A stretch of DNA of 63,414 bases, the filler included. It is 4 parts of 4 records of this genome, joined end to end, with 100 filler letters (N's around TTAATTAATTAA, not from the genome) between each part and the next. Parts side by side here need not be neighbours in the genome. Positions count along the whole stretch, not along the records: positions 39,829 to 58,055 come from DRR723986_8701; 3 more parts are not named here. One strand, given 5' to 3'. Positions 39,729 through 57,199 of the stretch are shown one piece after another. Position 1 is the stretch's first letter. Each line of letters starts with the position of its first letter. The notes beneath the pieces are model-generated. The model saw only the letters and a list, made by a program, of their open reading frames with translations. It made no database searches and was not told the DNA's origin. The translations under genes and the position numbers were made by a program.

Positions 39729-39828
39729 NNNNNNNNNNNNNNNNNNNNNNNNNNNNNNNNNNNNNNNNNNNNTTAATTAATTAANNNNNNNNNNNNNNNN
39801 NNNNNNNNNNNNNNNNNNNNNNNNNNNN
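39729..39828. other. Artificial contig spacer
   Basis: 44 N + TTAATTAATTAA + 44 N. Confidence 0.98.
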
Positions 39829-39890
39829 CAAGGCTCTGATTCTCTTAGACTCAAGGCTAAATCTCTTAGTCTAATTCTAAATTCAATGAA

Positions 39891-39910
39891 CCCATGACTC
39901 AAGTCATGGG
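39891..39910. repeat. REP-like palindrome
   Basis: CCCATGACT-CA-AGTCATGGG. Confidence 0.65.
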
Positions 39911-40258
39911 GATCCCACCCACCCAATGACATCCAGCTCACAACCTTGTCTAATTACTTTAGCAGCGGGTACCAACTCACCGTCCACCATTTTGGCGGAT
40001 TTTGATTTGGATTGAGTTTCTTGATGAGCGCTCAGCAGGTGTCACAAAATTCTGTGCTGACAGAGTTTGGAACAGCCTGCAAACAAACATAATTATTTGC
40101 TCTGTGTCTTGTATGCGCTATCGCGCCCAACGAACCGAAATTTTAGTTTAAGTGACTGTAATTCGCTGTAAGTGTTGGAAATTGGCTGCTGCACAAAATG
40201 GTATTTTCCGGTCATTGTGCTCCCGCGGAATGCCGGATGAACGCATCCAGCGGATGAA

Positions 40259-40963
40259 TTAACAGATTCCGCCGCTTGACTTTTTCTTTCTCTCTTCCTG
40301 TTCATCTTCCTCATCTGCCCGACGGTCGGCAGACGCGCAGGTGCTGCGGCACGTTTCAAAATCCTGTTTGCTGAATTGCAGTTGCGGCTCCCCCTGCATT
40401 GTGTTGCGCCGAGAATCCATCTCGCTGATCCACGCAGCAAAATCGTCTACAAATGGATCATTGGAGTTGGACTTATGCCCGCGATTGACATCTGAAATTG
40501 GCAAGAGCCGATCAGGCAGCGGTACAGGCTTATCGCCAAAATACCAGAAGTGATCCGATACCAATGCATTTACTCCGCCCAAATCTGTTTCGCGATTGCC
40601 TTCATTGTGCACGCTGGGCCGCATAGCGGGAGGCTCGCCGGCCGAATAATCAAAAATGCAGTCGCCTACACGGCGCGCATAGTCATCGTGAGTCGGGTCT
40701 GGGAATTTGGCGGGAGCATGGGTGCCGCACCACGCTTCATACGCGTGCATTGGAATTGGCTTCTGAATCTTCATTGCGTAAACCACGCGATCCGAAATGT
40801 CGCCAATCGGTGAGTTAACCGAGCCAAAACCTACGACCCAGTCGCCTTCCTCGGCAACCCGGCGAATGACAGGCTTACAGATAACCAGGCTACACCAGCC
40901 TCCGTAGGGATTGGGCGCGGAACCATAATCTGATGCAACAACATATGAGAAGAGCCTTGCCAT
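40259..40963 (-). CDS. Nmad2 (nucleotide modification associated domain 2) family protein
   Basis: N-terminal signature LFSYVVASDYGSAPNPYGGWCSLVICKPVIRR..GDWVVG, then VYAM, GDCIF, H, D, LVSDHFWYFG. Confidence 0.8.
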   Translation of the reverse strand: MARLFSYVVASDYGSAPNPYGGWCSLVICKPVIRRVAEEGDWVVGFGSVNSPIGDISDRVVYAMKIQKPIPMHAYEAWCGTHAPAKFPDPTHDDYARRVGDCIFDYSAGEPPAMRPSVHNEGNRETDLGGVNALVSDHFWYFGDKPVPLPDRLLPISDVNRGHKSNSNDPFVDDFAAWISEMDSRRNTMQGEPQLQFSKQDFETCRSTCASADRRADEEDEQEERKKKSSGGIC

Positions 40964-41285
40964 TTCTTGTCTCCAATTGCTAAACTAGCTTGGTGAGCAC
41001 CGGCAATCTTGTGATATTCCGATGCTTATCATTATTTTTGTTATACTTTAAATAACACTTTTATTCTTACAGCACCAAACTTCAGACACAAAATCAAAAG
41101 ACCCAGGCAGCAGTCGGAGTCAATAATTTCAATCCATTTCGGCTGTTGCAGACTTTTATACAAGGTGATTCTGGCATGCCAGTGAGATGAGCATTGCTAA
41201 TATTCTACGATAATGAGACTTGTACAAAACTGGGCCGCTTTGAGAATTGAACATTTCTCGAGACTGGCTACTTGAGCCACAACTA

Positions 41286-41354
41286 TTAACAAAAGGAAAC
41301 AGCAAGCCCAACTGGACCGGCTTTGCGGGACAGGAGGCGAAGCGCTCAAGCCTT
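41286..41354 (-). repeat. Dispersed repeat family, copy 3
   Basis: Reverse complement AAGGCTTGAGCGCTTCGCC...GGCTTGCTGTTTCCTTTTGTTAA, with a longer central spacer than the other copies. Confidence 0.8.
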
Positions 41355-41380
41355 AAACACTAAAATTGAAAATGTAATTG

Positions 41381-41833
41381 TTAATCCTCTGCCAGATTTA
41401 AATACTTCTGATGTATCTCGGTTTGTTCATCAAATCGAATTGGCTGATCGTTAATATGTCGGTAAAAAGACAACAGAATAATGGACGACATTTCGTCTGG
41501 GAAAACAACACCGTACCCCTTAAACCATTCTGCCAGATGCGAATCGGACCACAATTTCCAGTTATTGCGAATCCACATACCCAGGCCAAAGTGCTGCCTG
41601 CCAATATCCTCTTCAGTTGCAGTTTTGAAGTACTCAATAACTTCGTGGGACAGTACTTTTTCGAGAGTTAACATGCAATCGTCCAGGTCCTTTGGAATGT
41701 ATCCTTCCATCTCTGCCAGGACGGCAGCCCGCTCGCGATCGGGCCCGGTAGAATCGGCACAGGTCAAAGCAAATACAAGCAGAGAAAGTATCCCAAGAGC
41801 GGCATACAGGAAGGTAAATTGAGGTCTGTACAT
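41381..41833 (-). CDS. DUF6794-domain exported protein
   Basis: Signal/lipoprotein-like N-terminus; YIPKDLDDC, HFGLGMWIRNNWKLW, PDEMSSIIL. Confidence 0.75.
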   Translation of the reverse strand: MYRPQFTFLYAALGILSLLVFALTCADSTGPDRERAAVLAEMEGYIPKDLDDCMLTLEKVLSHEVIEYFKTATEEDIGRQHFGLGMWIRNNWKLWSDSHLAEWFKGYGVVFPDEMSSIILLSFYRHINDQPIRFDEQTEIHQKYLNLAED

Positions 41834-41975
41834 GCGTGATTCTCCGGTATGTGAAACAGGAAAAGACTGTGTTCCACACTTGTAGACAATCCAGCGCTGA
41901 TTTTTCTACACCTTTACACAAAAAAACATCAAATTGCATGTGGCGACAAAACTTAACATTTAAACGGAGTGTGGA

Positions 41976-43322
41976 TCAGGCCAAGCCCGGCGCTCCCAAC
42001 ACATCCCTACCCAGCCGACGGGAAAGTAAGACGGCACGCGCTACCGTAAATGCGATCATCGAAAGCCATAAACCGTGATTTCCAATCAAGGGAACGCTAA
42101 TTGCGGCACAGGGCAAAAAGACAGCAAATGTCGCGACAATCATGGTCTGACGCATGGAAGAACCTGCCGTAGCTCCAATAAATGCGCCATCCCAAAGGTA
42201 AGCCGGCACACTTACGAGTGGAACAAAAACCATCCAAATAATGAACGTGTGCGCATAGTTAACAAGGTCGCTTTTGTCGCTGAACAGATACAAAAACTCG
42301 CGGCCAAAAACACCGATTCCAATCGCTAAAAATGCTGCGATGATCATCGACCAGATGAAGCCCGTGCGCAAATCCAGCTTCAGACGCGCAGCATCGCGTT
42401 TGCCGATAGCGTGCCCCACCAGCGATTCAATCGCAAATGCAAAACCGTCAATGCCATAAGCCACCAGCGTCCAGAACTGCATCAGCAGCTGATTGGCTGC
42501 CAGTGTTAACAGTCCCAGGCGCGGCGAAACCATGAAAAATGTGACGTACACAACTTCCAGGCAGAGCGTGCGCACAAAAATATCACCATGCAAACTAAAG
42601 AAGGCGCGTAGGCCACTACGTTCAATCACCGCCTGCCAGTTAAACGCTTTGGCAAACGGTTTATAGCGCATCCACAAAGCTGCCACGGCAACGAGTAAAC
42701 CGCTGTATTGCGCAACGACGCTGCCCCAGGCTACCCCTTCGTGTTCCAGTCCAAGCCCGTACACAAAAAACAAATTGCCCAGAATGTTAACAAGATTGAT
42801 GCCCACGGCCAGAATCATTACAATCCGAGCATTCTGCAAGCCCAGGAACCAACCGTTTAGTGCCAGCAATGCCAGAGCTGCCGGCGCAGCCAGAAATCGA
42901 ATCGTTAAGTATTCACGTGCAAAGAGGTCTGTCTGCGCCTGAACATCTGCAATTAACAGACTGACGTCTGCAATGATTGGCGCCAGTGCTATAATAATGA
43001 GCCCAAAAGGCAGCGCTACGGTTAATGCGCGATACAAAACTGTTGCGGTCGCAGCATCGTCACCACGTCCATATGCCTGCGCACCGGTTCCGGTGGCTCC
43101 CATACGCAGGAATCCAAACATCCAGTAAATGGTTGAAACAATTAAACCGCCAATGGCAATTGCTTCCAGATGTGCGATTGACGGCATACGCCCCATCATC
43201 GCCGTGTCCACTGCCGAAAGCATCGGAACGGTAATGTTGGAGATAATATTCGGAATTGCCAGCCGCAGAACGCGCCGGCGGGAAGCCGCACCCGTCAAAT
43301 CATCGCGCGACTTTTTTGCCAT
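41976..43322 (-). CDS. dinF: MATE-family efflux transporter (DinF-like)
   Basis: LAIPNIISNITVPMLSAVDTA, FGFLRMG, DGFAFA, DGAFIG; many TM helices. Confidence 0.88.
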   Translation of the reverse strand: MAKKSRDDLTGAASRRRVLRLAIPNIISNITVPMLSAVDTAMMGRMPSIAHLEAIAIGGLIVSTIYWMFGFLRMGATGTGAQAYGRGDDAATATVLYRALTVALPFGLIIIALAPIIADVSLLIADVQAQTDLFAREYLTIRFLAAPAALALLALNGWFLGLQNARIVMILAVGINLVNILGNLFFVYGLGLEHEGVAWGSVVAQYSGLLVAVAALWMRYKPFAKAFNWQAVIERSGLRAFFSLHGDIFVRTLCLEVVYVTFFMVSPRLGLLTLAANQLLMQFWTLVAYGIDGFAFAIESLVGHAIGKRDAARLKLDLRTGFIWSMIIAAFLAIGIGVFGREFLYLFSDKSDLVNYAHTFIIWMVFVPLVSVPAYLWDGAFIGATAGSSMRQTMIVATFAVFLPCAAISVPLIGNHGLWLSMIAFTVARAVLLSRRLGRDVLGAPGLA

Positions 43323-44166
43323 CCTGGTCGTACTTGTAGAATCCTTCGCCGGTTTTGCGGCCCCACAACTTGGCGTCTACATACTGCTGCTGCATCAGCG
43401 ACGGCTCAAAACGTGGCTCGTTAAAGTATTGTTGCCAAACGGATTTGGTTACTTCCAGGTTCGTGTCTACGCCAATCAGGTCCATCAACTCAAAAGGCCC
43501 CATGCGGAAGCCCGCGCCTTTCATGATCTTATCGACCTGCTCCACGCTCGCAGTCCGCTCAGTACAAACTCGCTGTGCTTCGTTGTAAAAATTGCGTGCC
43601 ACACGGTTAACAATAAAGCCTGGCACGTCGGCGGCTACGGCCGGCGATTTGCGTAGTGACTTAGCCAATTCCACAGTTTTGTCCACAACTGCCTGACTGG
43701 TTTTAACGCCGCGAATGACTTCCACCAGCTTCATGATATGCGCCGGGTTAAAGAAGTGCATACCAACAAAACGCTCAGGATGTTTAAACTCGGCCGCCAG
43801 TGACGTCACCGATATCGAACTGGTGTTGGTAGCGATGATAACATCTTTGCCCACCGTGTCTTCCAGAGTCGCAAAGAGCTTGTTTTTAATGTCACGGCGT
43901 TCAACAATCGCTTCAATCACAAAGTCGCATTTCTTAAACTCGGCCAAATCTTTGGTAAAACAGTATTCTTTGAGCGCCGCATCCGCCTTTTCCTGCGTCA
44001 TCAGCTTGCGCGCCACGGCTTTTTCAAGCTGCTTTTTAACAAATGCGTCACCGCGATCAATTGACTCCTGGTGGACATCAAAGAGGAGCGCCTGATGCCC
44101 GTTCTGGATGGCGGCCACGGCTATTCCGGCCCCCATTGTCCCTGCGCCACAAATTCCGATGAGCAT
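43300..44166 (-). CDS. 3-hydroxyacyl-CoA dehydrogenase (PaaH/Hbd-like)
   Basis: GAGTMGAGIA, EAIVE, TNTSSIS, GMHFFNP, PGFIVNR, MGPFELMDLIG, GRKTGEGFY. Confidence 0.93.
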   Translation of the reverse strand: MLIGICGAGTMGAGIAVAAIQNGHQALLFDVHQESIDRGDAFVKKQLEKAVARKLMTQEKADAALKEYCFTKDLAEFKKCDFVIEAIVERRDIKNKLFATLEDTVGKDVIIATNTSSISVTSLAAEFKHPERFVGMHFFNPAHIMKLVEVIRGVKTSQAVVDKTVELAKSLRKSPAVAADVPGFIVNRVARNFYNEAQRVCTERTASVEQVDKIMKGAGFRMGPFELMDLIGVDTNLEVTKSVWQQYFNEPRFEPSLMQQQYVDAKLWGRKTGEGFYKYDQDGKKVAR

Positions 44167-44310
44167 ACTATTACCACTTTATCTACAATGAATGAAATAC
44201 TTTTTCAGGAGCTTAACAGCTCAATGCTGCCGGCTATTCTCAGCCGGCGCGGCTTAACATTTGGATTTTCACAGTCAGAGTTTGACTGCCAAATCTTAAG
44301 CGCTTTGCAA

Positions 44311-45108
44311 TTACTTGCCCTCAAACTTGGGGCGACGTTTTTCAATAAAGGCCTGTACGCCTTCGCGGTAGTCATGGCTTTGGCCGGCGCGCTGCTGATA
44401 GTCAACTTCCATATCCAGGATCGAGTCGAGGGACTCGTTGGCACCGCGCTGCAGCATCTCTTTAACAAAACCGTAGCTCTGTGTTGGACCTTGGGCGTAG
44501 GTTTTGGCCAGGTTATGCAGGGCAGTCGGCAGCACGTCTGGCGCTACTACCTGATTAACCATTCCAAGGCGCAGCGCTTCTTCAGCTGTCATCGGCGCGT
44601 TAAGTGTTGCAAACTCAAATGCTTTGGCATAACCGAGCATGCGCGCATAGAAGTAACTTGCTCCTGAATCCGGCACAAGTGCAATTCCGATAAATGCTTC
44701 AACAAGTTTAGCGCGTTCGCTCATGATACGCACATCACAGGCCAAAGCCAGTGAGAGGCCCGCACCAGCCGCAGCACCGTTAATCCCAGCGATAATCGGT
44801 TTGGGGATCGAGCGCAGCTTGCGAATAATTGGATTGTAGCGGCGGCGCAGTGAGTCCGCAAGCGAACGTTTGCCGTCACCGCTGTCGTCAGCCGAAGGCG
44901 CTTCTTTTAGGTCCTGCCCCGAGCAAAATGCGCGGCCGGCACCTGTTAACACAATGCAGCGCACGGCGGCATCTTCTTCGGCGGCCTTCAATGCAGCTTG
45001 CAGGTCGGTTGTTAACTGTTCATTACAGGCGTTAAACGAATCCGGCCTGTTAAGTGTAATCGTCAGTACGCCGTCTTCCAGCGTGTAGAGCAAAGTTTCG
45101 AATGTCAT
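44311..45108 (-). CDS. paaG: Enoyl-CoA hydratase/isomerase, PaaG-like
   Basis: GAGRAFCSGQDL, YNP, NGAAAGAG, LVPDSG, DYREGVQAF. Confidence 0.78.
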   Translation of the reverse strand: MTFETLLYTLEDGVLTITLNRPDSFNACNEQLTTDLQAALKAAEEDAAVRCIVLTGAGRAFCSGQDLKEAPSADDSGDGKRSLADSLRRRYNPIIRKLRSIPKPIIAGINGAAAGAGLSLALACDVRIMSERAKLVEAFIGIALVPDSGASYFYARMLGYAKAFEFATLNAPMTAEEALRLGMVNQVVAPDVLPTALHNLAKTYAQGPTQSYGFVKEMLQRGANESLDSILDMEVDYQQRAGQSHDYREGVQAFIEKRRPKFEGK

Positions 45109-45163
45109 AGTATTTCTATCGTATTGTTAAGTGTAATTTGCCATTTGAAGGCGAGTGCCGGAT

Positions 45164-45943
45164 TTATTTGCCGGTCCATTTGGGGCGACGTTTTTCCATA
45201 AAGGCTTGCATGCCTTCGGTCGCATCTTCGCTGGCAAACAGCAGATAGAAGTTCTTGCGCTCAAATTCCAGGCCGTTTTCAATAGTCGTATCAAATGCTT
45301 TTAACACGGCTTCTTTACCCAGGCGCGCTGACAGCGGCGGCATGGCGGCAACGGATTTGGCAAGCGAAATTGTTTCTTCCAGATACACACTATCCGGGCA
45401 AACGCGGTTAACAAGTCCGGCAGTATGGGCTTCACGTGCGGAGATCATGCGGCCTGTTAACACCATTTCCATGGCCAGAGCTTTACCAACGGCACGTGTT
45501 AAACGTTGTGTTCCACCGGCACCGGGCATTACGCCAATTTTAATTTCGGGCTGGCCAAATCGCGCACCTTCGGCAGCCACGATCATATCGCAGATCATCA
45601 CGAGTTCACATCCGCCACCAAGCGCAAAACCACTGACTCCGGCTACGATGGGTTTCTTGATTTTTCGGATCCGATCCCAGCGCGAAAACTGGTCACGTCC
45701 AAGCATGTCGATCGCCGTGGCATCGGACATCTCGGAAATGTCGGCCCCGGCCGCAAACGCCTTTTTATCGCCGTGGATCACGATACAGCGCACGGCATCA
45801 TCAGCATCATAGGCTTCAAATGCATCGACCAGCTCACGCATGGTTTGCAGGCTCAGGGCATTGAGTTTATCGGGACGATTTATCTGGATCGCGCCAACGC
45901 CGTCGGCAGCCTGATAGGTTCGGATACATTCGAATTCACGCAT
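45164..45943 (-). CDS. paaF: Enoyl-CoA hydratase, PaaF-like
   Basis: AFAAGADI, GFALGGGCEL, FGQPEI, PGAGGTQRL, EGMQAF. ATG 45943 after GGAG. Confidence 0.78.
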   Translation of the reverse strand: MREFECIRTYQAADGVGAIQINRPDKLNALSLQTMRELVDAFEAYDADDAVRCIVIHGDKKAFAAGADISEMSDATAIDMLGRDQFSRWDRIRKIKKPIVAGVSGFALGGGCELVMICDMIVAAEGARFGQPEIKIGVMPGAGGTQRLTRAVGKALAMEMVLTGRMISAREAHTAGLVNRVCPDSVYLEETISLAKSVAAMPPLSARLGKEAVLKAFDTTIENGLEFERKNFYLLFASEDATEGMQAFMEKRRPKWTGK

Positions 45944-46122
45944 GAGCGCCGTCTCCAATCACTGATAATGGCGGAAGTTCGCCGTGGAACAGAAGCAGTT
46001 GCAAATTTACGAAAAGTGGCGTTAATAGCGGGGTTGGCCGTGCCATGGGCTCACAGTTTCTTGGCTTCCGGCCTAAGTTTTGTCTGCAATTTTTGCGGTT
46101 GGCGGCATTGCGTTTTTCTTGA

Positions 46123-46269
46123 AAGGCTTGAGCGCTTCGCCCCCTCCGGTGGCTTACTGGTTCTTTTTGTTAGTCATTGGGTGCGAAGTCGCGAGATTTT
46201 GAGTCTGAAATTCTGAGCTGTCATCGAGTCTTCAAGCCACAATCCCCACCAGCTGTGAGCCACAGGCTC
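46123..46269 (+). repeat. Long composite repeat (dispersed repeat copy 4 plus left arm of the REP-like palindrome), interrupted by IS110
   Basis: 46133-46269 aligns without gaps to 57917-58053 (constant offset 11784; about 108/137 identical by hand count). Confidence 0.9.
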
Positions 46270-46278
46270 GTAAGTTGT

Positions 46279-46513
46279 GATTGTAGTAACACAATCTTGG
46301 ACTCCTTCATCAATCCATTCAGTTTAGCCGCCTTGGCAGGGGGAAGGAAAAGCACATCTCAGGCTAGGTCTTCGAGACCGTCTGTGAGGACGAGCTTTCC
46401 TTCCCCTGGTGTATCTACAAGCTCGAAGAGTACCAGGGGTTTCGGTAGGCGCCGAACCCGATTACACGAGCAAGAGCATTGATCCACCTGCCAAGAGGCT
46501 TTTACGAGTCCAA
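46279..46513 (+). ncRNA. Predicted IS110 bridge RNA (target-binding and donor-binding loops)
   Basis: Target loop closed by GGGGAAGGAAAAGC/GCTTTCCTTCCCC with guides TCTCAGGCT (46357-46365) and CTGTGAG (46382-46388). Donor loop with guides AGAGTACCA (46427-46435) and ACGAG (46466-46470). Ends are approximate. Confidence 0.85.
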
Positions 46514-46535
46514 CAAATATACTTCGGAGGCTAGC

Positions 46536-47636
46536 GTGTCCAAACAACAGCGTTTTAACCATTGTGTGGGTATCGATGTCGGTAAAGAGTTCTTGGTCTG
46601 CCGCATCGGTCATCTTCAGGAAGACGGCAGTATCACGTATACCCGCGGGCAGGGGAAGTTTGCCAATGGCACGAAGGGTTTCACTGCGTTGCTGAGTTGG
46701 GCTACGGCGTGCATCCCCTCGGACGCGTCGCTCAGTTTTGTGCTGGAAGCCTCGGGCGTGTACCATGAGGAGGTGTCGTACTTTCTGCATCGTGCCGAGC
46801 AGTACGTCGTCGTTCTGGTGCCGCGCCGTGCGCGCCAGTTTGCTGAATCAATCGGTATTGACACGAAGAATGATAGTGTCGATGCCGCCGTACTTGCGCG
46901 TCTGGGCCTGCAGTTACACCCCAGGGCCTGGCAATGTCCGGATCCGCAGTTCCTGGCCCTCAAACGCATCATGCGGTACTACCACAGTCTGGTTGAGGAT
47001 CTTACCGCTGCCCGCAACCGCAGAGAGGCTCACAAGAGCAGTCATGCACCGGTGACTTCTCTCCTCAAAAGCCAGGACAGAATCATCGCCGCTTTGGTAC
47101 GTGAGCGTATTGCAACGATCAAATCCGCGCGCCAGCTCATCAAGTCCTTCCGTCCTGCGCTGCGCGCCAAACTCTCCTACCTGCGCTCGATTCCTGGTAT
47201 CGGTGAGATCATCGCCCTGACACTCGTGGCAGAAACCGACGGCTTTGCTCTGATGGAAAGTAAGCGCCAGATAGCCTCCTACGCCGGGCTCGACGTCCGT
47301 GAACACCAAAGTGGCAAGACAAGCGGACGATCGCGCATCTCCAAGCGGGGGAACAGCCGCATGCGTAAGGTGCTCTATATGGGAGCGCTCACAGCTGCCA
47401 ATCATAACAAGCCGCTCAAAACATGGTATGAAGTTCTAAAGGCAAAGAAAGCTACACCACAGATTGCCGTCGTCGGAGTGATGCGCAAGCTCCTTGTCCT
47501 GGCCTTTGTGATATGGAAGACCGAACGTCCCTTCGACCCAGAACACGAAGCAAACCGACGTGCCAACGCTGCGAACGATGAAGCAAGAACGAAGGACGCG
47601 ACTTCCGAAAAAGTCGCGATTTCTCTTGGTTCTTAA
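46536..47636 (+). CDS. IS110-family recombinase/transposase (366 aa)
   Basis: DEDD RuvC-like residues (VGIDVGK, VLEASG, KNDSVDA); Tnp domain SIPGIG, YAGL, HQSG with the conserved Ser, ISKRGN, MRKLL. GTG at 46536 after GGAGG (46526-46530). Confidence 0.96.
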   Translation: MSKQQRFNHCVGIDVGKEFLVCRIGHLQEDGSITYTRGQGKFANGTKGFTALLSWATACIPSDASLSFVLEASGVYHEEVSYFLHRAEQYVVVLVPRRARQFAESIGIDTKNDSVDAAVLARLGLQLHPRAWQCPDPQFLALKRIMRYYHSLVEDLTAARNRREAHKSSHAPVTSLLKSQDRIIAALVRERIATIKSARQLIKSFRPALRAKLSYLRSIPGIGEIIALTLVAETDGFALMESKRQIASYAGLDVREHQSGKTSGRSRISKRGNSRMRKVLYMGALTAANHNKPLKTWYEVLKAKKATPQIAVVGVMRKLLVLAFVIWKTERPFDPEHEANRRANAANDEARTKDATSEKVAISLGS

Positions 47637-47644
47637 CACAGTAC

Positions 47645-47660
47645 CTCACAGCTGGTGGGG
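47645..47660 (+). repeat. Right arm of the interrupted REP-like palindrome
   Basis: CTCACAGCTGGTGGGG is the exact reverse complement of CCCCACCAGCTGTGAG at 46244-46259. Confidence 0.92.
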
Positions 47661-47850
47661 AAAACTTTTGAGCTCAAAATTTGACCGCTCAACGCCTTCA
47701 GCCGCCCGCTGTCAGTCTTTCCGAGTGACGTAAGATTATATTCCTTGTGTATGTCAGCAGCGTGACATGCAGCCTTCAAGTAAACTGCCGCTACTGCTTC
47801 CGGCTATGAACTTAGGTTGTTGTTTCTTGGTTCATAACTTTAGCTTGATA

Positions 47851-47878
47851 GCTTTGGGTTGGTTGCTTTGGGTTGGTG
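47851..47878 (+). repeat. 14-bp tandem duplication
   Basis: GCTTTGGGTTGGTT GCTTTGGGTTGGTG. Confidence 0.7.
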
Positions 47879-48515
47879 CTGCAAGTTGAAAATCTTGAGC
47901 ATCGAATTGGGCGCGCTCAGCTGCTGTAACTTCCTGTACCCTGCACTGAATTGTCAGGCAGCACCGCTCAGATGAAGCGCTTATATCTCCTCAGTTTTGC
48001 AATCTCTCGCGAATTTTTTGCTACGAACTCACTTCAAGCCATAATAACCTGAACCGCTTAACAGCATATTCCGCCACGTTAGCATCAAGTCGCCGCCGTT
48101 GAACACGAAGCCGCAGTGAATTCAAGAACCTCGCTTGTATTCTTGTAGCGGAGAATGGCGGGAAACGTGCCGACAGCCTCTCGTGAGTGTCCACATAGCG
48201 GCCGCAGATACGCCGATCTGCCATAGACCATGGGCTGGAAAGGCTCTGGGAGGAGCGCCGCAAATGCGCCGGAATGGTGGAGGGCCTGACCGTGGCCCGA
48301 TGAATGAGACGAATGGTGGCACAATCTAAACAGGTTGGGGTAAACAGGTGGGGCAAGAATTAGATATGCAGTTCAATTACCGGCAGCCTCGCCGCCAGGG
48401 GTCGCTCCTGACGGACGAGACCTTGTGATCGCTTCTAAAAGCTCCCACAGCCGATGATTTGTCAATTTCGTTCCATGGAATATTTACCATAATTTGGCCC
48501 ATGCATTCCGTGAAA

Positions 48516-50339
48516 CTACGGGGCCAGGCTATCCAGCACCTCGCCACAGTGCAACATCGATGCACCAAAGTATGGATTAAGAACTTTGGACTCCGTACTC
48601 AACCAATTGCCGCCGGCATTCCCGAGAGCCATTGGACAGTATTGGACATAGAAAGTATTTTCATCTGGAGGAAATGCACGTGCCAGTGCAATCAGATTGT
48701 CTGAAACGGGTTTGAACTCTGTGCGTAATGTCGCCATTTCATCGGCCGATTCTAGCGCGTGCATTGACTTCCGCAGTGCTTCTCCATGCTGCAGCCACAC
48801 CGCCTTTGCCTCACCTACAAACACATGCACATCAATGCCCTCCAGCTTTTTCGAAAGTCTTCCTGCTACTGCACGAGCCTGCTTAAAATCATCATTAACA
48901 AGAGCATCTTTAAGCTCCAAATATGTACTAAATACGGGAGCGAGTTTTGCGCGTGCCTCAACACCAATAGAAACTGGTTTTACATTCTGGATAGTCGTGT
49001 GAGACGATGCATCACCAGGGCCGACCATTGTGTTCGATGCACGTATCGCCACCACACCGGGATTCATCATACTGGCATTGCCCGCCAGCTGTGCCGCAGC
49101 ATCTACACTGAACAAACCATTGGCAACCAGTTCATCGCCTGCTTCTACCCCATCAAGAACGACATAAGAATTTCCAAGAGCCGGCCCCAAGAGGACTTCG
49201 CGTAACTCAAAAACTCCAATCTCATCTCCAGCAGTCTTGGCGTAAACGATAGATCGCTCCCCCGTCCAAAGAATCGCAGACTTTGGAACCTGCAACTGAC
49301 CATCCGCCGCCTCGCTGCCTGATTGGCGGCTTGCTGTAATCCGGCCACGCACATACATTGAAGGTTTGAACCGATTGCCAATGTTTTTGAGTGTCGTTCG
49401 CACTTTCACTGTTCCTGTTTGCGAAGCACCCAGAGGCTCAATAAATTCGATGCGGCTGCGGAATATTTTGCCGGGGTAGGCGTTAACACTAAAACTTATA
49501 CTGTCTCCGCGTGATACTGATGCAATATCTGATTCGTAAACGTCAAACTCTACCCACAGGCTGTTAAAATTGACAGCTTCAAACAGGCGTTGACCGCGGA
49601 CGACATAATCACCTTCGCGTATGTTCAGACGGAGTATCTGACCAGCATTATCACTATACAGATCAACAATACCGCTGGCATCCTTGTCAGCAATAAGCTG
49701 ATCAATTTGCACAGTACTAAATTTCCAATTGGCAAGCTTGGAACGTACGGCTGCGTATAACTGCGGCTGTTGTTCTCTCTGCTGATAGGCACGTAACAGT
49801 TCTTGCTGCACCGTCATGACTTGTGGCGAGTAGATTTGGGCAAACACGACCCCCTTCTCAAATTGCTGCCCAAAATAGTTAAGTTTCAACGACTCGATTC
49901 GTCCTGCTACATGTGCAGTTTGCACAAAACGACTGCTCTCACTGGTTACTACTTCCCCATTAACATCAATAATGTGTTGTGCGCCAGTCTGTTTAACTTG
50001 TACTGTTGATACATTTGCCAATTGCATTGCACGTGGAGAAAGCTTCACCCGACGCATATTCGCATTGTCATCAGCAGTCTCCACCGGAATCAAGTCCATG
50101 CCGCATATTGGACAGTTCCCTGCCTCCGGCTGCCGAATCTGCGGATGCATGGAACATGTCCAAGTTGTGCCAACCTGCGCAGCGCTACTGCCGTCCGCTC
50201 TATGGTGTTCTTCTTGCTGTGGCTTTTCGCCACCAATGCCAAACAGCACCCAACTGAGCAATAACCCGGCAATGAATGTACCTAGTGGAAGCAGGAGCCT
50301 GCGCACTGTTCCCTGAGATAATCTCTGTTCTGTTATCAT
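48516..50339 (-). CDS. CusB-like RND periplasmic adaptor with heavy-metal-binding domain and C-terminal DUF3347-like domain
   Basis: WTCSMHPQI..GNCPICGMDL, membrane-fusion core, YLELKDALV, YCPMA, NPYFGASMLHCG. Confidence 0.92.
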   Translation of the reverse strand: MITEQRLSQGTVRRLLLPLGTFIAGLLLSWVLFGIGGEKPQQEEHHRADGSSAAQVGTTWTCSMHPQIRQPEAGNCPICGMDLIPVETADDNANMRRVKLSPRAMQLANVSTVQVKQTGAQHIIDVNGEVVTSESSRFVQTAHVAGRIESLKLNYFGQQFEKGVVFAQIYSPQVMTVQQELLRAYQQREQQPQLYAAVRSKLANWKFSTVQIDQLIADKDASGIVDLYSDNAGQILRLNIREGDYVVRGQRLFEAVNFNSLWVEFDVYESDIASVSRGDSISFSVNAYPGKIFRSRIEFIEPLGASQTGTVKVRTTLKNIGNRFKPSMYVRGRITASRQSGSEAADGQLQVPKSAILWTGERSIVYAKTAGDEIGVFELREVLLGPALGNSYVVLDGVEAGDELVANGLFSVDAAAQLAGNASMMNPGVVAIRASNTMVGPGDASSHTTIQNVKPVSIGVEARAKLAPVFSTYLELKDALVNDDFKQARAVAGRLSKKLEGIDVHVFVGEAKAVWLQHGEALRKSMHALESADEMATLRTEFKPVSDNLIALARAFPPDENTFYVQYCPMALGNAGGNWLSTESKVLNPYFGASMLHCGEVLDSLAP

Positions 50340-50540
50340 AGTATTTCCTTACCACTTAAATTCTGTCCGTGTGTTTTTTGAAGCTGTCGGGGAGACGAGC
50401 GTAGTCATGTTTTCCAGCAATGTTAATCAGTCGGTAGAAAAAACTGCGTTGCAACTGAATTGCAGTCACCCACTTTGTACAGAGCTTGACACATGAATAG
50501 ATTGATCCGAATGTTTAATTGCAGTATACTTCTGAACATT

Positions 50541-51857
50541 TCACTCAGACAACACTCCCACACCCACAGTCTCTGTTAAATAGTATATTTGTGCCAGAGC
50601 CGTAAAATACTGTCGCACCATTGCGGCTTGTTGTACCTGCAACTCCAGTGTGGCCGATTGAGTCGTAAGAAGATCGTCAAAATCGTTTCCAGAATTGCGA
50701 TACTCAGCAAGCAATAGGTCCAACAGTCGCTGATTACGAACTATTTGATGTGAATACAGCTTGAACTTGCGGCTTGCTTCCTGGTAGACATAACGTTCTT
50801 GTTCAAACATGGCAACCATTTTGTTTAACTCGTTGTCTACTGTCAGGGTATACATGTGACTCTGCAACTCAGCTTCATTAACTCCCGCTTCAAATTTGGA
50901 GCGGAATAGCGGCACGCTAAACTGCAGAGTCGGGATGATTGCATCGCGTCCATTGTTAAGCGGTGCGATGTCATCGCGCGCGCCGGTCAGCACATAGTCA
51001 ATTCCCAGACTAAGAGTCGGCATACCTTCTTTTGAGCGTTGGAGAGCTAAGGCATCAGACGCAGCCCGTCGCATTGCCAGTGATTGAATTCGAGGATGGT
51101 TGCGCAACAGACTGTCCAATTGCCTGGGGCCCTGTACAGTAATATCCGCCTCACCAATTGTATGATTCTGAGAAACTTCAATTCGTGACGTATCAGACCT
51201 GTTAAGCAAAACACGCATTTTCTGTTCGACGGCCACACGACGTTCCTGAATGAGCTCCAGTTGAACCTTAAGATCTTCAACCTCCATCTCAACGCGCAGT
51301 ACGTCAGCAAGGCTAGCCGTACCGGCGGCAATGGTATTTGTAAGCAATTGTGTATGTGTAGTTAAAATCTCCAGCTGCGCCATATACAACCGGTGATTTC
51401 CATCAAGTTCGTGGAGGTGATAATACACTTGACGTACGTCACGTCGGAGCGAACTTCTGAGAGCGCGATATTCCTCCTGCAAAGCCTGCGCGGTGCTCTC
51501 ACCAGTTGTCCGTCTTGCATCTAATAGGCCAAACCACGGGATGGGCTGCCGCAGATAGAGTCGTGCTTGCTGCGGCCCCAGTCTGCTTTCTACGGGCAAA
51601 ATCGCGATACCGATATTAACCGATGGATCAGGGTGGCCACTCAAATGTACGGATCGTGCCCGACTGGCCATATACCGCGCCTCTGCTGCTTTTAACCCAG
51701 GGTTGTGCAACTCTGATTCATGTAAATAGTCTGCAAGTGTTTGCGATTTGCCATCAACAACTAACAAAAATGTCAAGGGCAGAAGCACCAGAACCAAGAT
51801 AGTCAACGAACGCTCCAGAGATCGCGATATGACAAGTTTGCCTCTAAACATGATCAA
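50541..51857 (-). CDS. TolC-family outer-membrane factor
   Basis: NPGLKA, LPVESRLGPQ, QPIPWFG, coiled coils; between the cusA- and cusB-like genes. Start may be slightly downstream. Confidence 0.88.
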   Translation of the reverse strand: MIMFRGKLVISRSLERSLTILVLVLLPLTFLLVVDGKSQTLADYLHESELHNPGLKAAEARYMASRARSVHLSGHPDPSVNIGIAILPVESRLGPQQARLYLRQPIPWFGLLDARRTTGESTAQALQEEYRALRSSLRRDVRQVYYHLHELDGNHRLYMAQLEILTTHTQLLTNTIAAGTASLADVLRVEMEVEDLKVQLELIQERRVAVEQKMRVLLNRSDTSRIEVSQNHTIGEADITVQGPRQLDSLLRNHPRIQSLAMRRAASDALALQRSKEGMPTLSLGIDYVLTGARDDIAPLNNGRDAIIPTLQFSVPLFRSKFEAGVNEAELQSHMYTLTVDNELNKMVAMFEQERYVYQEASRKFKLYSHQIVRNQRLLDLLLAEYRNSGNDFDDLLTTQSATLELQVQQAAMVRQYFTALAQIYYLTETVGVGVLSE

Positions 51858-54800
51858 GCTCCTCCCTGTTTAAGCTTGCGCTCTTCACGCATACAATACA
51901 GAACGGGTGTGAAAAAATAGGCAATCACGGCAACCGACATGCCACCAACAGCGGGAATCGCCATCGGAATCATTATATCGGCACCGCGCCCATTGGAAGT
52001 CAGAATTGGCAGAAGAGCGATAATTGTTGTTGCGCTGGTCATGACAGCCGGCCGGATGCGCCGCTCTCCACCACGCACCACAGCTGCATGCAGCTCGGGA
52101 ACTGTTAACGGTCTTGAACGCCGCATACTTTGGTCCAGGTTAGTTGCAATCAACACTCCATCATCCGTGGCAATACCGAACAATGCAATGAATCCAACCC
52201 AGACAGCAACACTGAGGTTTACCTGAGAAACATTAAACAACGTGCGCAGTGAAATATCAGACACTGTTACATTTAGAAACCATTCCTGGCCGAACAACCA
52301 TATCAATACAAACCCGCCGCTAAATGCCAGTGCTACGCTTCCAAAAATTATCAGCGATGTTGTTCCTGAGCGGAACTGTAAATATAAGATCAAAAAAATG
52401 AGCGCCAGAACCAGTGGAATAATGATCCCCAAACGTTTCTCAGCTCGCACCTGGTTCTCATAATTGCCCGAAAATCGATAACTCACACCTTCAGGAACCT
52501 GTAGTTCACCCTCAGCGATCTTATGTTGAATAAAAGCCTGCGCGGCTTCGATGACATCGACTTCGGCAAGATTGTCCTGCCGGTCAAACAGGACATATGA
52601 AAGCAAGAAGGTATTTTCACTTTTTATTTGCTGTGGGCCACGCTCAAATTTGATTGACGCCAAGTCTTTTAATGGATATTGCCTGCCATTGGCAGCCGCA
52701 ACAAGTACATTCTCTATATCAGCAGGTGAGTCACGTAGCTCGCGCGGATAGCGAACGCGAACGGCGTAACGCTCGCGGCCTTCCACCGTATAGGTCACAG
52801 GTAAACCGCCTATCGCCAATTCAATTACCGTCTGCACATCTTCAATATTAATGCCACGCCGTGCAATGGCAGATCGATCAATCTCTATGTTAATATATGG
52901 TTTGCCGACAGTACGCTCGGCAAAAACCGTCTGTGGATTAATAGCTGAAACCTGTTTAAGTATGTCTTCGAGTTTAAGACCAAACGCCTGAATCGAGCTC
53001 AAGTTGGGGCCAAAGACTTTGATCCCCATTGGTGCGCGCATCCCCGTTTGCAGCATCACCAGTCGCGTTTCAATCGGTTGTAATTTCGGCGCTGAAGTCA
53101 CGCCGGGAAGTGCAGTGATTGCTACAATCTCACTCCAGATATCATCAGGTGAGTGAATGTGACTGCGCCAGTTGCGAAAGTACAGTCCACTGTCATCAGG
53201 AATCAACTGCGTCTTGTCAATGCCTGCCAACAGAAGCGAGTCGTTGGTCATGCTGCTGAGTCCGCCGCTATCGCGTAACACAAAGCGACCATCGGCATCA
53301 ACACGAAAACGCATGCGGCGGCCTCTGGCATCAACCGCATATTCAGGTGCGTAGTTAATCACATTTTCGTACATGGACGTTGGAGCCGGATCCAGGGCCG
53401 ATTCCACGCGACCAAGCTTCCCGACCACCATGGTAACTTCCGGAATGGTGCTGACCAGAATGTCAAGTTGTTGTAGCGTGAGAGTATTTTGTTGTACGCC
53501 GGCATGTGCCATGGAAGTCGGCATTAACAGGAAGCTGCCTTCATCCAAGGCCGGCATAAATTCCTTGCCAATGCCTGGAAAGGAATGTAATGCTTGTGAC
53601 CAGATCGTGCTAGTTCGAAGGTTCCATCCAATCATATCAGAGCTATGAGCTATCCAGCCAAATACGCTTGAGAAGCCGAGCCAAATGGTAATACCTACGA
53701 CTATCAGTCCACTCGGAAGAAGGAGAAAAATGCTTTTGTGCCTAAGGCACCAGCCTAAAATGCTTCCGTACCAATGTTGAATTCCCAGCATAATGCCGAG
53801 CACCGTAATCAAAATGCTTGCAACAAATATTGTGTTAACAAAGAGTGTGACGCTTGGCCCAAGCGGCATCCACATCTCCCCCAACAATATTGCAACCGTT
53901 AGCGCCGCCGCAATATTTATTGAGTTCTTTATAATCCAATGTGAACGCCAGCGACTGTGCATTAAGAGACGCGCAACCCCAAAGACAACCAGACTCATGC
54001 CGGCCCAGAGTGTACCCCACATTGCAATGAATAGCCCACCGAACAGTAAACAACATCCGAAAACAATCGACGTGCGGGCGCGGTTAAATCGCATGCGGAA
54101 TAAGGTGTGTGCCAGGGCGGGCAATACAAAGAGTGCCACCAACACCGCAGCAACGAGAGCAAAGGTTTTTGTAAACGCCAGTGGATGAAATAGCCTACCT
54201 TCGGCTGCCTCAAGCGCAAAGACTGGAATAAAACTAACGATCGTCGTTGCCACAGCGGTTAAAATTGCCGAGCGTACTTCAAGGGTGGCATCAAATATTA
54301 CGTCGATCAGCTTTTTACCCGAGCCGGCTTCCGCTAAATGTTTAAGCACGTTTTCGGAGACAATAATTCCCAAATCTACCATAGTTCCGATTGCAATTGC
54401 GATGCCCGACAGCGCCACAATATTCGCATCGACGCCGAATTGCTGCATGGCGATAAAGACCATCAAAATCGCCACCGGCAAAATTCCTGCGATCAGTATT
54501 GATGCACGCAGATTTAACACCAGAACAATTACAACCAAAATTGTTATTAACAATTCAAGAGTCAGAGCATCTTCCAGCGTCGCGATAGTTTCGTCAATTA
54601 GTCCGCTGCGATCGTAAAACGGGACAACTGTTAACTTGCTCGTGCGGCCGTCTGCCAAAATTTTTGTGGGCATGCCTGCCGAGGACTCTGCGATTGCTGC
54701 TTTTACGCCTTCTATCACAGCTTTGGGGTTCGCGCCATACCGGGCCACAACCACTCCGCCAACCACCTCGGCTCCCTCCTTGTCCAATACTCCGCGACGC

Positions 54801-55660
54801 TGTGCCGGGCCCAGGTTAACACGTGCCAGATCGCGCACCAGTATCGGTACCCCGTTGCGTTCCACAACTACTGTCTGTTCAATATCGTGGACCGAGGTAA
54901 TGTAACCCAGCCCGCGGACAAAATATTCGACCTGATTTATCTCGATGGTCTTGGCGCCGATGTCCCGATTGGACTTGCGCACGGCGGCAGCAACCTGACT
55001 GATCGAAATCTTATATGTCTGTAGCGCAGCGGGGTCCACATCCACCTGATATTCCTTCACGAACCCACCAATTGATGCGACTTCCGCTACTCCTTCCACC
55101 GCGGCCAAGGAAAACTTCACGGTAAAATCTTGCAATGAACGCAGTTCATGTAATCCCCATCCACCAGTCGGGTTTCCGAGTGAATCCCGGCCTTCCAGCG
55201 TATACCAAAACACCTGACCAAGGGCCGTCGCATCTGGGCCAAGGGCAGGCTGCACACCCTCGGGTAGCAGACCTGAAGGCAAAGAGTTGAGTTTCTCGAG
55301 AATTCGCGAGCGCGACCAGTAGAAATCTACGTCGTCTTCAAATATGAGGTAGATGCTGGAAAAGCCAAACACGGAAGAACTGCGAATTGTTTTAACACCG
55401 GGAATCCCCAACAAAACAGAGTTCAGCGGAAAAGTGATTTGATCCTCTACGTCACGCGGTGAACTCCCCCGCCAGGGAGTGTAAATTATTTGCTGATTTT
55501 CACCAATGTCCGGAATGGCGTCCACGGCCACCGGAGACCCCAACTCAAGCCCGTGATTCCAATCAAACGGCGCGCTGATTATTCCCCATCCCACTACAAT
55601 CAGTAGCAGAATTGAAGTAACTAACTTGTTTTCAAGAAAAAAGCGAATTGCTGTGTCCAT
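51854..55660 (-). CDS. cusA: CusA/CzcA-family heavy-metal efflux RND permease
   Basis: VDAIPDIGENQQI, GPDATALGQVFWY, GIAIAIGTMVD, FMPALDEGS, GIATDDG, RIRPAVMT. Confidence 0.93.
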   Translation of the reverse strand: MDTAIRFFLENKLVTSILLLIVVGWGIISAPFDWNHGLELGSPVAVDAIPDIGENQQIIYTPWRGSSPRDVEDQITFPLNSVLLGIPGVKTIRSSSVFGFSSIYLIFEDDVDFYWSRSRILEKLNSLPSGLLPEGVQPALGPDATALGQVFWYTLEGRDSLGNPTGGWGLHELRSLQDFTVKFSLAAVEGVAEVASIGGFVKEYQVDVDPAALQTYKISISQVAAAVRKSNRDIGAKTIEINQVEYFVRGLGYITSVHDIEQTVVVERNGVPILVRDLARVNLGPAQRRGVLDKEGAEVVGGVVVARYGANPKAVIEGVKAAIAESSAGMPTKILADGRTSKLTVVPFYDRSGLIDETIATLEDALTLELLITILVVIVLVLNLRASILIAGILPVAILMVFIAMQQFGVDANIVALSGIAIAIGTMVDLGIIVSENVLKHLAEAGSGKKLIDVIFDATLEVRSAILTAVATTIVSFIPVFALEAAEGRLFHPLAFTKTFALVAAVLVALFVLPALAHTLFRMRFNRARTSIVFGCCLLFGGLFIAMWGTLWAGMSLVVFGVARLLMHSRWRSHWIIKNSINIAAALTVAILLGEMWMPLGPSVTLFVNTIFVASILITVLGIMLGIQHWYGSILGWCLRHKSIFLLLPSGLIVVGITIWLGFSSVFGWIAHSSDMIGWNLRTSTIWSQALHSFPGIGKEFMPALDEGSFLLMPTSMAHAGVQQNTLTLQQLDILVSTIPEVTMVVGKLGRVESALDPAPTSMYENVINYAPEYAVDARGRRMRFRVDADGRFVLRDSGGLSSMTNDSLLLAGIDKTQLIPDDSGLYFRNWRSHIHSPDDIWSEIVAITALPGVTSAPKLQPIETRLVMLQTGMRAPMGIKVFGPNLSSIQAFGLKLEDILKQVSAINPQTVFAERTVGKPYINIEIDRSAIARRGINIEDVQTVIELAIGGLPVTYTVEGRERYAVRVRYPRELRDSPADIENVLVAAANGRQYPLKDLASIKFERGPQQIKSENTFLLSYVLFDRQDNLAEVDVIEAAQAFIQHKIAEGELQVPEGVSYRFSGNYENQVRAEKRLGIIIPLVLALIFLILYLQFRSGTTSLIIFGSVALAFSGGFVLIWLFGQEWFLNVTVSDISLRTLFNVSQVNLSVAVWVGFIALFGIATDDGVLIATNLDQSMRRSRPLTVPELHAAVVRGGERRIRPAVMTSATTIIALLPILTSNGRGADIMIPMAIPAVGGMSVAVIAYFFTPVLYCMREERKLKQGGA

Positions 55661-55810
55661 TTGGTAATACCATTGCATGCGATTATTGGCCCGGTCAGGA
55701 ACTCCCGGAAAAACCAGAGTCTTTGGTCAGAATCAAGTCGAGTGAAAAGTCTGCTACAGACAGGCAGGTCTATGTAGGCGTGCCAAGGTGATGGCTACGC
55801 ACTATCTATC

Positions 55811-56236
55811 TCATAATCGCATAGTACAAATCAGAATCGACAAACTCTCAGAGCTTAATGGCGGCGCATTCTCACGCATGGAAACACATTGAGCAGTTGG
55901 ATGCCAGGGAATGTGGTTAAGTTCCGCTTGGCGTAGTGACAAATGCAACACGTGTTTTGCAGACGGTACTCCAACCGTTGGCCCACCCAGGGCTTTACCC
56001 ACTGAAATAGCACGCTGATCGTTCGCACAACAGTTAGTGTGTAGTTCTGCCCCTTTTTGCGCCGATGTCACATGATTGGCGCAGGCACCGTTGCCGGCAC
56101 AAGGTTCTGGCTCCACGGATGGTAAAATCAATACCGTGTCCACTGTCCTGCCGGAGCAAAAGTGTGTATTAATTGCCAAGCCAACATTTGTTAGCAACAA
56201 CAGTATACATAGCGATATGGCGAGTGCACGCTTCAT
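55811..56236 (-). CDS. HYC_CC_PP-family protein (HFC variant)
   Basis: Signal-like N-terminus, THFCSG, NCC, APP, C-terminal LICTMRL; typical position upstream of a metal RND gene. Confidence 0.8.
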   Translation of the reverse strand: MKRALAISLCILLLLTNVGLAINTHFCSGRTVDTVLILPSVEPEPCAGNGACANHVTSAQKGAELHTNCCANDQRAISVGKALGGPTVGVPSAKHVLHLSLRQAELNHIPWHPTAQCVSMRENAPPLSSESLSILICTMRL

Positions 56237-56270
56237 GTCATGTAATTTACACGCCTGCTGGAATCTGCCA

Positions 56271-56301
56271 TTATAGAATTGTGCATTTATGTTGCATAGT
56301 T
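56271..56301 (-). promoter_or_regulatory. Candidate AraC-type operator (direct repeat, 21-bp period) upstream of the HYC_CC_PP-cusA operon
   Basis: TTATAGAATT-N11-TTGCATAGTT, similar to 57169-57199. Confidence 0.5.
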
Positions 56302-56325
56302 TTGTAAACGTCTGATGATGAGCGT

Positions 56326-57069
56326 CTACCACACAAACAACATAAATATTGCCATTGCGATCATGGTCATGTTTTCGATGATTGTGACGGTACTCATCGG
56401 TAAATCAAAGACATCACCCAGGCAAGCACATTGAATTTGGCGCTTAGTCAGTGTGCTCTTAATGACGCCGACGCTGCCAATTCCCAAGATCAAAATCGTT
56501 AGACAACTTGTAATTACCGGAAAAATGTTAATCAAAAACGCCAGGCCCAGACCCAACTCAATAAAGGGATATACCTTGGCGTAGACACGCGATCGGGCGG
56601 CCACAATATCGTACATGCTAAATGCATCTGCGAACCCTTGAAGATTCAGGAGCTTAAAAAAAGCAAACACAATAAAAAAACCAGCCATAAAATGACGCAT
56701 CCAGATCATGACATCAAAAGCATCAAATGGATACTGCACCAGCAGCGTCGTTCCGGCAATGAAACAGCCAATCATAATCAAAGGCTTGTAACGGGCGACG
56801 GAAAAACCACCGGACGGTGTGCCGGCTTCCGTTGACTCCACATCCGATGGCCCAGAGGGTTCAACAATAAGTTTATACTTGCCGGTCGCTTCTACGCGGC
56901 GTTTAAAGTCATCGGTACTGAAGTGTTCAGCAACGGTTAATCGCGCCTGGGGAAACTCCTGTTGAATTGACAGTTCGTGTACGCCGGGCACCGACCGTGT
57001 TAAATCAATCAATGATTGCACACAAGACCCGCAGGTCATACCTTCTATTCCGAATGTGATTTTTCGCAT
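56326..57069 (-). CDS. HMA domain fused to a MauE/DoxX-like membrane domain
   Basis: GMTCGSC; FMAGFF, FFKLLNLQGFA, YD, YPFIEL, CACLG, PMSTVTIIE. Confidence 0.88.
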   Translation of the reverse strand: MRKITFGIEGMTCGSCVQSLIDLTRSVPGVHELSIQQEFPQARLTVAEHFSTDDFKRRVEATGKYKLIVEPSGPSDVESTEAGTPSGGFSVARYKPLIMIGCFIAGTTLLVQYPFDAFDVMIWMRHFMAGFFIVFAFFKLLNLQGFADAFSMYDIVAARSRVYAKVYPFIELGLGLAFLINIFPVITSCLTILILGIGSVGVIKSTLTKRQIQCACLGDVFDLPMSTVTIIENMTMIAMAIFMLFVW

Positions 57070-57168
57070 ACATCCAATTCAATTCACTATTCACACATAC
57101 GATTTCCACCTGCAAAGCGGAAACTCTGATTTCGGAGGCAAATATCGAACAATTATCTACTTCCGGCC

Positions 57169-57199
57169 TTACACGATTGTGAAGTAATTTTATATCGTT
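57169..57199 (-). promoter_or_regulatory. Candidate AraC-type operator upstream of the HMA-MauE gene
   Basis: TTACACGATT-N11-TTATATCGTT. Confidence 0.5.

Follow-up and report, generated by a model that had tools for sequence, protein, structure and literature searches.

An IS110-family insertion sequence (IS) raises the question of whether its long non-coding left end encodes a bridge RNA, and whether the element's target and donor sites can be read from that RNA. The element lies in a window of 63,414 nt (the whole stretch of DNA analysed), in which four contigs are joined by N runs (24874-24973, 39729-39828, and 58056-58155) around a TTAATTAATTAA spacer, so that genes on either side of a join are unlinked. 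It is carried by the contig at positions 39829-58055 (DRR723986_8701). The best characterized relative is IS621, whose bridge RNA was described by Durrant et al. 2024 (PMC11208160) and Hiraizumi et al. 2024 (PMC11208158; Protein Data Bank entry 8wt6). We conclude that the element is very probably a structurally intact IS110-group insertion sequence that works as an IS621-type recombinase system guided by a bridge RNA. A first-pass annotation had called the system complete and a candidate programmable recombinase; judged from the sequence, both descriptions are plausible. The open reading frame (ORF), left end, CTC junctions, and guide strings that it described were all located where it had placed them.

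The element is 1,378 bp long, counting one CT, and spans from the CT at 46267-8 to the CT at 47645-6, both junctions reading CTC. All features of the element and its target given here lie on the plus strand. The left end (46267-46535) is non-coding and measures 269 nt, close to the ~270 nt first estimated, while the right end stops 10 bp after the stop codon. A long non-coding left end, a short right end, CT at both junctions, and the lack of terminal inverted repeats together place the element in the IS110 group.

The flanks of the element form a perfect 17-nt inverted repeat of host DNA, with the 5' arm TCCCCACCAGCTGTGAG at 46243-46259 and the 3' arm CTCACAGCTGGTGGGGA at 47645-47661. The pre-insertion site was thus a hairpin with the 7-nt loop CCACAGG, and the insertion point is the CT that opens its 3' arm. 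The left target (46260-46268) consists of the loop and the left CT copy, with the 3' arm itself as the right target. At the other end, the left donor (47638-47646) is ACAGTAC followed by the right copy of the CT core, part of a terminus, TTGG.TTTTAACACAGTA(C/T)CT, that is kept in orthologs. The reconstructed target therefore reads CCACAGG-CT-CACAG, and the circle junction, or donor, ACAGTAC-CT-CGTAA.

The 5' arm motif occurs again at 58026, where a second, empty copy of the hairpin (58026-58055) reads ...CCACCAGCTGTTAGCCACAGGCTAAC before the contig end cuts it. This copy has an identical left target and a single CT (CCACAGG-CT-AAC); its right target reads CTAAC..., and the hairpin carries a compensatory arm change. 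The empty paralogous site gives independent support for the CT boundaries, which had been proposed from the junctions, and identifies the target as a repeated palindrome resembling repetitive extragenic palindromic (REP) sequences. The element-bearing contig stops inside this hairpin copy, which suggests that the repeat broke the assembly.

The single ORF of the element (46536-47636) encodes an intact 366-aa IS110-family recombinase with a GTG start codon and a GGAGG ribosome-binding site (46526-46530) 5 nt ahead of it. Both expected Pfam domains are present: PF01548 (E 1.4e-21; 77.4 bits, cut-off 29) and PF02371 (E 2.5e-27; 95.5 bits, cut-off 21.3). The closest solved structures are IS621 (8wt6 chain A, E 2.3e-35) and ISCro4 (9t56, E 6e-35). 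As the first-pass annotation had recognized, the protein has a DEDD motif and a catalytic serine in HQSG. We find that D14, E71, D113, D116, S259, and G260 align to D11, E60, D102, D105, S241, and G242 of IS621 (8wt6_A), the residues that form the composite active site according to Hiraizumi et al. (PMC11208158). Among 33 aligned relatives, these catalytic columns show either no variation or a conservation of at least 90%.

The left end folds as two stem and internal-loop modules, which map module by module onto the IS621 bridge RNA. A 5' stem-loop (46279-46296; GATTGT/ACAATC, loop AGTAAC) is present in both the minimum free energy (MFE) and the centroid structure. The target-binding loop module follows at 46340-46406, and both covariance models described below recover it, with helices 1-3 being 87-99% paired and showing compensatory changes. 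Its outer stem (46340-53/46394-406) has a bulged A within 46348-51, three pairs before the stem end. Inside this stem, a 3-nt linker (ACA) is followed by the left target guide (LTG), one A, a hairpin (46367-79), a GT linker, the right target guide (RTG), and a handshake G. The LTG, TCTCAGGCT (46357-46365), has the same sense as the left target CCACAGGCT and is predicted to pair with the bottom strand, making seven Watson-Crick pairs and one G-U pair (position 1), with one mismatch (position 3). The RTG, CTGTGAG, with its handshake base (46382-46389), is a 7/7 complement of CTCACAG, and the handshake G46389 is complementary to donor position 7 (C47644). Both target guides thus stand as first annotated, with the wobble pair added to the 7/9 identity of the LTG.

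The donor-binding loop module (46418-46481; helices 4-6 of the covariance models) has an outer stem at 46418-24/46474-81. It contains, in order, a GA linker, the left donor guide (LDG), an A, a hairpin (46437-59), a second GA linker, the right donor guide (RDG), a handshake C, and a linker A. The LDG, AGAGTACC (46427-46434, with the A at 46435), is 7/8 identical to the right-end terminus ACAGTAC+C (ACAGTACC), the mismatch being at position 2. The RDG and its handshake base, TT|AC|ACGAG plus C46471, occupy 46462-46471 in a register taken from the IS621 RDG (157-165). Here the first-pass annotation can be refined: the LDG and the ACGAG that it had reported are present, but the RDG is longer than ACGAG, and its full match is the stronger one. 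Its nine nucleotides (46462-70) pair 7/7 with CTCGTAA (46267-73), with 2 nt looped out. The handshake base C46471 complements G46266 (target position 7). Read in the IS621 register, the four guides match at 21 of 24 non-core positions (LTG 5/7, RTG 5/5, LDG 6/7, and RDG 5/5).

Such an arrangement rarely arises by chance. When the left end was subjected to 20,000 mononucleotide shuffles, a left-target copy of at least 7/9 followed within 45 nt by an exact complement of the right target occurred in 13, and the analogous donor pair in 24. A search of Rfam 15 with the left end (E <= 10) returned three chance-level matches and no bridge-RNA family.

These guide matches might still have another origin. 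The left end could be a mere cis-regulatory 5' leader of the transposase mRNA, with the matches arising from a palindromic target and short element ends. One guide match is made less surprising by the palindrome, since the host 5' arm has its own exact copy of CTGTGAG (46253-59), and in the MFE fold the guide regions are paired to one another. What speaks against a leader is the behavior of the same columns in orthologs, where they track flanks that are unrelated and non-identical between targets, and where the donor guides track the element ends. The column-for-column correspondence with the experimentally characterized IS621 RNA argues in the same direction. We regard the leader explanation as highly improbable.

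The ortholog evidence comes from 80 loci (L001-L080) found by a genome-contig search with a protein alignment; the same search with the single recombinase protein gave 49 pattern matches and no relatives. An nhmmer search of the window left end against the 80 loci found nothing at E <= 10, so any similarity between left ends is visible only to a structure-aware model. A first covariance model, for which the window sequence was the only input, had 22 matches in the ortholog loci, all on the plus strand and directly upstream of the recombinase coding sequence (CDS). A second model, built from the best eight, matched 73 of the 80 loci and gave three further, overlapping minus-strand matches on palindromic stems.

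We show that the structure of the left end is conserved and covaries. In the alignment to the second model, which was fitted to that model and thereby favors it, 89.8% of cells are paired, as against 64.9% in shuffles. Every one of the 32 modelled pairs has changed on both sides, and the covariation score of 0.63, compared with at most 0.16 for slid partners, was reached in none of 500 shuffles.

The guides also covary with the insertion sites. Ortholog ends were located without the target guides, the left through the conserved CT(C/T)NTA start and the right through the LDG 7-mer plus CT. This recovered the left flank in 59 and the right flank in 55 of 74 rows; a few flanks look misplaced (e.g., L019, L057, L048, and L042) and are still counted. 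At non-core positions, the LTG columns match the seven upstream flank bases of their own locus at 4.33 positions on average and those of other loci at 2.04 (52 non-redundant pairs), and the RTG columns match the five downstream bases at 4.15 and 1.39 positions, respectively (48 non-redundant pairs). None of 10,000 permutations reached either cognate value, although the orthologs are related to one another and the permutation counts are therefore not independent events. The match peaks at register shift 0 (4.41 for the LTG and 4.11 for the RTG), compared with best values of 3.33 and 1.80 at shifts of 1-3. Of 12 non-core positions, the guides of the window match 10 in their own flanks and no more than 7 in any of 49 foreign flank pairs; conversely, 72 foreign guide sets match the window flanks at no more than 6 of 12. 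A covariance model of homologous left ends and guide-target covariation across orthologs were the checks that the first-pass annotation had proposed, and both favor its reading.

On the donor side, the last 4 nt of the RDG covary with the start of the left end: CGAG occurs with CTCG in 40 loci and GGAG with CTCC in 4, while other loci have CAAG with CTTG or AAAG with CTTT. For about 12 loci starting with CTTG, the model alignment shifts the RDG by four columns and displays "TGTA/TGTG" where CAAG follows. The window has a compensatory RDG pair of its own, UUA with TAA, where orthologs have AUA with TAT. Handshake complementarity is found in 34 of 46 (RTG side) and 31 of 48 non-redundant loci. 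As 8 of 62 rows share the mismatch at LDG position 2, it is no sign of decay; because right ends were found via the LDG with one mismatch allowed, the comparison of LDG and right end is partly circular.

There is extensive agreement with IS621, for which the published nucleotide map (PMC11208158) was checked on an IS621 copy from an Escherichia coli plasmid (L081). Both systems combine a PF01548 and PF02371 recombinase, with DEDD and Ser-Gly, with an RNA encoded in the left end, and in both a 5' stem-loop (reported for IS621 in PMC11208160) precedes the target loop and then the donor loop. They share a bulged A (A43 in IS621) three pairs before a 3-nt linker and a 9-nt LTG, a GU linker after the inner hairpin (G72-U73), a 2-nt linker before the LDG (G121-G122 in IS621, GA in the window), and an 8-nt LDG followed by A (A131). 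The RDG of each is discontiguous, 9 nt for 7 bp, with IS621 A157-U158/U159-U160/G161-G165 corresponding to 2 + 2 looped + 5. Each has a CT core, one handshake base after the RTG, and one after the RDG. Their donor termini are nearly alike (ACAGTAT-CT-TGTAT in IS621 and ACAGTAC-CT-CGTAA in the window), and the IS621 guides AUCGGGCCU, UGCGUAG, and ACAGUAUC fall in the LTG, RTG, and LDG columns of the second model. This bears out the proposed guide-hairpin-guide design with a CT core.

The two elements also differ. Their recombinases are ~33% identical (tblastn to IS621 copy H37), and the RTG has 7 nt in the window and 4 nt in IS621. The ACA linker before the LTG lacks an equivalent of the conserved G48 of IS621. 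A closing helix is present in the window and absent from the IS621 copy, and the start codon follows the donor loop after 54 nt in the former and after 6 nt in the latter. The right end, unlike that of IS621, has just 10 bp, and the candidate junction promoter is of the TTG-N20-TAnnTTTG rather than the sigma-70 type. The IS621 copy in L081 (475-500, 1760-1775) sits at ATCGGGT-CT-ACATC and its guides read ATCGGGC-CT-ACGCA; this natural insertion thus has several mismatches between guides and site.

Membership of the IS1111 group was considered and rejected. In that group, according to Durrant et al. (PMC11208160), the bridge or seek RNA lies in a long right end and the sub-terminal inverted repeats are 7-17 bp long; here it is the left end that holds the RNA, the right end being 10 bp long. 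ISCro4 (9t56), a distant ortholog from Enterobacteria, belongs to the same fold family by recombinase sequence (E 6e-35), a comparison made by protein sequence alone.

Several observations weigh against a working bridge-RNA system. The LTG and LDG each carry a mismatch (positions 3 and 2, respectively), and low mismatch tolerance is reported for IS621 by Durrant et al. (PMC11208160), although the same authors describe natural elements as usually having 0-2 guide mismatches. The free-RNA MFE of 46340-46481 is -56.3 kcal/mol, lower than the -43.3 kcal/mol of the model structure, in part because guides of a palindromic target can pair mutually. With filters off, the best match of the second model in the IS621 copy is weak (542-680, CDS from 686; 12.8 bits, E 0.038), as is that in a Pantoea IS110 (523-662, CDS from 692; E 0.019), although both lie where a bridge RNA is expected and the IS621 match is on the expected strand. 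The 63-kb window holds no second copy of the element, and no circle junction or contig spanning an empty site was found in two DNA runs of one marine-metagenome study. The promoter box at the left end departs from those of the orthologs. Finally, the ortholog alignment is fitted to the model, and the loci share ancestry.

Some of these points would fit a stranded, immobile relic of the same design, in which guide mismatches and an off-consensus junction promoter have accumulated and the ORF is merely still open. One copy in 63 kb, the two mismatches, a box (TAAGTTGT) unique among 43 pattern loci, and the lack of any close relative above 55% identity in a collection of 5.8 billion proteins are what a relic might leave. 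Yet the ORF is intact, all catalytic residues and near-invariant columns are kept, and so are all RNA stems. The element has made its own compensatory change in the RDG, and its LDG mismatch is common in the family. Furthermore, diverged relatives of the element occur in the marine-metagenome study, where the two DNA runs (small shares, 0.05) yielded only short contigs, 85-97% alike to it. A relic is therefore unlikely, and we retain the reading of an intact bridge-RNA-guided element.

Modelled on IS621, such an element would work as follows. Excision would join the right end to the left end and bring CTTG (47625-47628), in the last codons of the ORF, to within 20 nt of TAAGTTGT (46271-46278), at the start of the left end, as the -33-type and -7-type halves of a putative promoter. 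An RNA of ~200 nt would be transcribed from the left end. Its first internal loop would bind the target, with the LTG on the bottom strand of CCACAGG-CT and the RTG on the top strand of CT-CACAG, and its second loop would bind the circle junction, with the LDG on ACAGTAC-C and the RDG, discontiguously, on CT-CGTAA. A tetramer of the DEDD/Ser recombinase would then exchange strands at the CT core. In nature, the element targets a REP-like 17-bp hairpin at its loop and 3' arm. Transcription, RNA-protein binding, and recombination are predicted for an element so built, and it may be active today.

The Bacteroidota promoter consensus is TTTG/TAnnTTTG. The corresponding TTG-N20-TA..TTTG geometry has its 20-nt spacing in 40 of 43 pattern loci, the window included, from 60 loci with both ends; the orthologs have TATGTTTG or TATGATTG where the window has TAAGTTGT. 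A sigma-70 promoter scan of the linear element found none on the plus strand of the left end, and a junction promoter is itself invisible in the linear form because its halves are joined only in the excised circle. The final 40 codons of the recombinase contain a terminator-like hairpin, CGCGACTT/AAGTCGCG followed by ATTTCTCTT (47597-47618), which directly precedes the -33-type box and could shield the junction promoter from read-through.

Both binding loops are enclosed by a closing helix, whose 5' strand is at 46326-46340 and whose 3' strand (CCTGCCAAG..GGCT), followed by TTTT, is at 46487-46503; 46487-500 pairs with 46326-40 (duplex energy -20.1 kcal/mol, z -4.47). The TTTT may mark the 3' end of the RNA. 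A comparable enclosing duplex (z <= -2), of differing sequence, is present in 33 of 74 loci. No specific account of a closing helix or of a Bacteroidota bridge RNA was found in the available portions of the literature.

Insertion into a repeated extragenic palindrome is shared with ISPpu10 and ISPpu9 of Pseudomonas putida (10.64898/2026.03.19.712850), where the target is likewise reported to carry a conserved stem-loop beside or overlapping the guide-paired bases. In the window, the hairpin loop serves as left target and the 3' arm as right target, so that the RTG has the sequence of the 5' arm. In ISPpu10, a 5' extension is reported to pair with the left-target region (10.64898/2026.03.19.712850). 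It is conceivable, though on balance doubtful, that this lineage and many Bacteroidota relatives share a bridge-RNA variant with a closing-helix three-way junction, a promoter formed only in the circle, and target capture that depends on hairpin state. In such a variant, the U-run could define the 3' end of the RNA and keep the guide RNA apart from the mRNA of the recombinase, and structure-gated target capture may, by analogy, be akin to the "dual-match" logic of ISPpu10.

In several orthologs (L025, L004, L073, L051, and L030), the insertion site is the T-rich loop of a terminator-like hairpin, e.g., CCTTGAT...ATCAAGG, and hairpin-loop targeting may be general in the subfamily. One Chitinophagaceae chromosome carries two identical copies head to head, ~1.4 kb apart and with overlapping ranges (L066 and L067), which share the right flank CTCAGCGGTGAA and resemble each other in the left flank. 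These may represent convergent paired target sites, analogous to those reported for the REP targets of ISPpu10.

The relatives of the element agree with its annotation as an ortholog from the Fibrobacteres-Chlorobi-Bacteroidetes (FCB) group. In the collection of 5.8 billion proteins, the best full-length relatives of the recombinase are at most 40% identical, and one 207-aa fragment shares 55% identity across 56% of the query. The nearest genomic relatives are 34-39% identical and nearly all from Bacteroidota, while a neighboring housekeeping-type gene has its nearest named relatives, at ~70% identity, in Kapabacteria, Ignavibacteria, and Chlorobi. The Bacteroidota IS110-group elements (Hymenobacter, Kaistella, Chryseobacterium, and others; L001-L080) are thus the nearest relatives, among which the RNA model is common. 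They share the termini TTGG.TTTTAACACAGTA(C/T)-CT-CGTATG.TTG, the geometry of the junction promoter, and, in many loci, the closing helix. The window differs from them in its target, its -7 box, and its GGAGG ribosome-binding site, and the left ends have no sequence similarity detectable by nhmmer.

Durrant et al. (PMC11208160) report bridge RNAs predicted in 85.7% of IS110-group elements, and an analysis of 5,511 target and 2,201 donor guide pairs. With bridge RNAs already predicted by the thousands, this element is a divergent example (<=40% identity) of an established system, and their supplementary lists may already include it or its subfamily. The bridge-RNA concept is unchanged, its mechanism having been established for IS621. 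What the locus offers is a readable natural example from a poorly sampled lineage, with a marine host resembling Kapabacteria or Ignavibacteria. Furthermore, the 73 ortholog loci indicate that the Bacteroidota branch follows the rules of IS621 (four-guide register, discontiguous RDG, handshake bases, and CT core), that many of its members add a closing helix, and that their putative junction promoter may be adapted to the promoter type of the host. Divergent orthologs of this kind are raw material for orthogonal programmable recombinases.

Three members of the Bacteroidota-type subfamily that match the RNA model carry other taxonomic labels: L077, a 1,616-bp contig labelled Candidatus Woesearchaeota, and L042 and L074, short contigs labelled Clostridia/Acutalibacteraceae. 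These archaeal and Firmicutes labels could reflect binning error or horizontal transfer.

The insertion has disrupted no gene. The element is flanked by two minus-strand genes, one for a PaaF-like enoyl-CoA hydratase (45164-45958) and one that is CusB/CzcB-like (48516-50339). On one side, a phenylacetate-type beta-oxidation cluster with PaaF-, PaaG-, and PaaH-like genes and a MATE transporter occupies 41976-45958 on the minus strand, and on the other, a CusCBA/CzcCBA-type heavy-metal efflux operon occupies 48516-55678, also on the minus strand.

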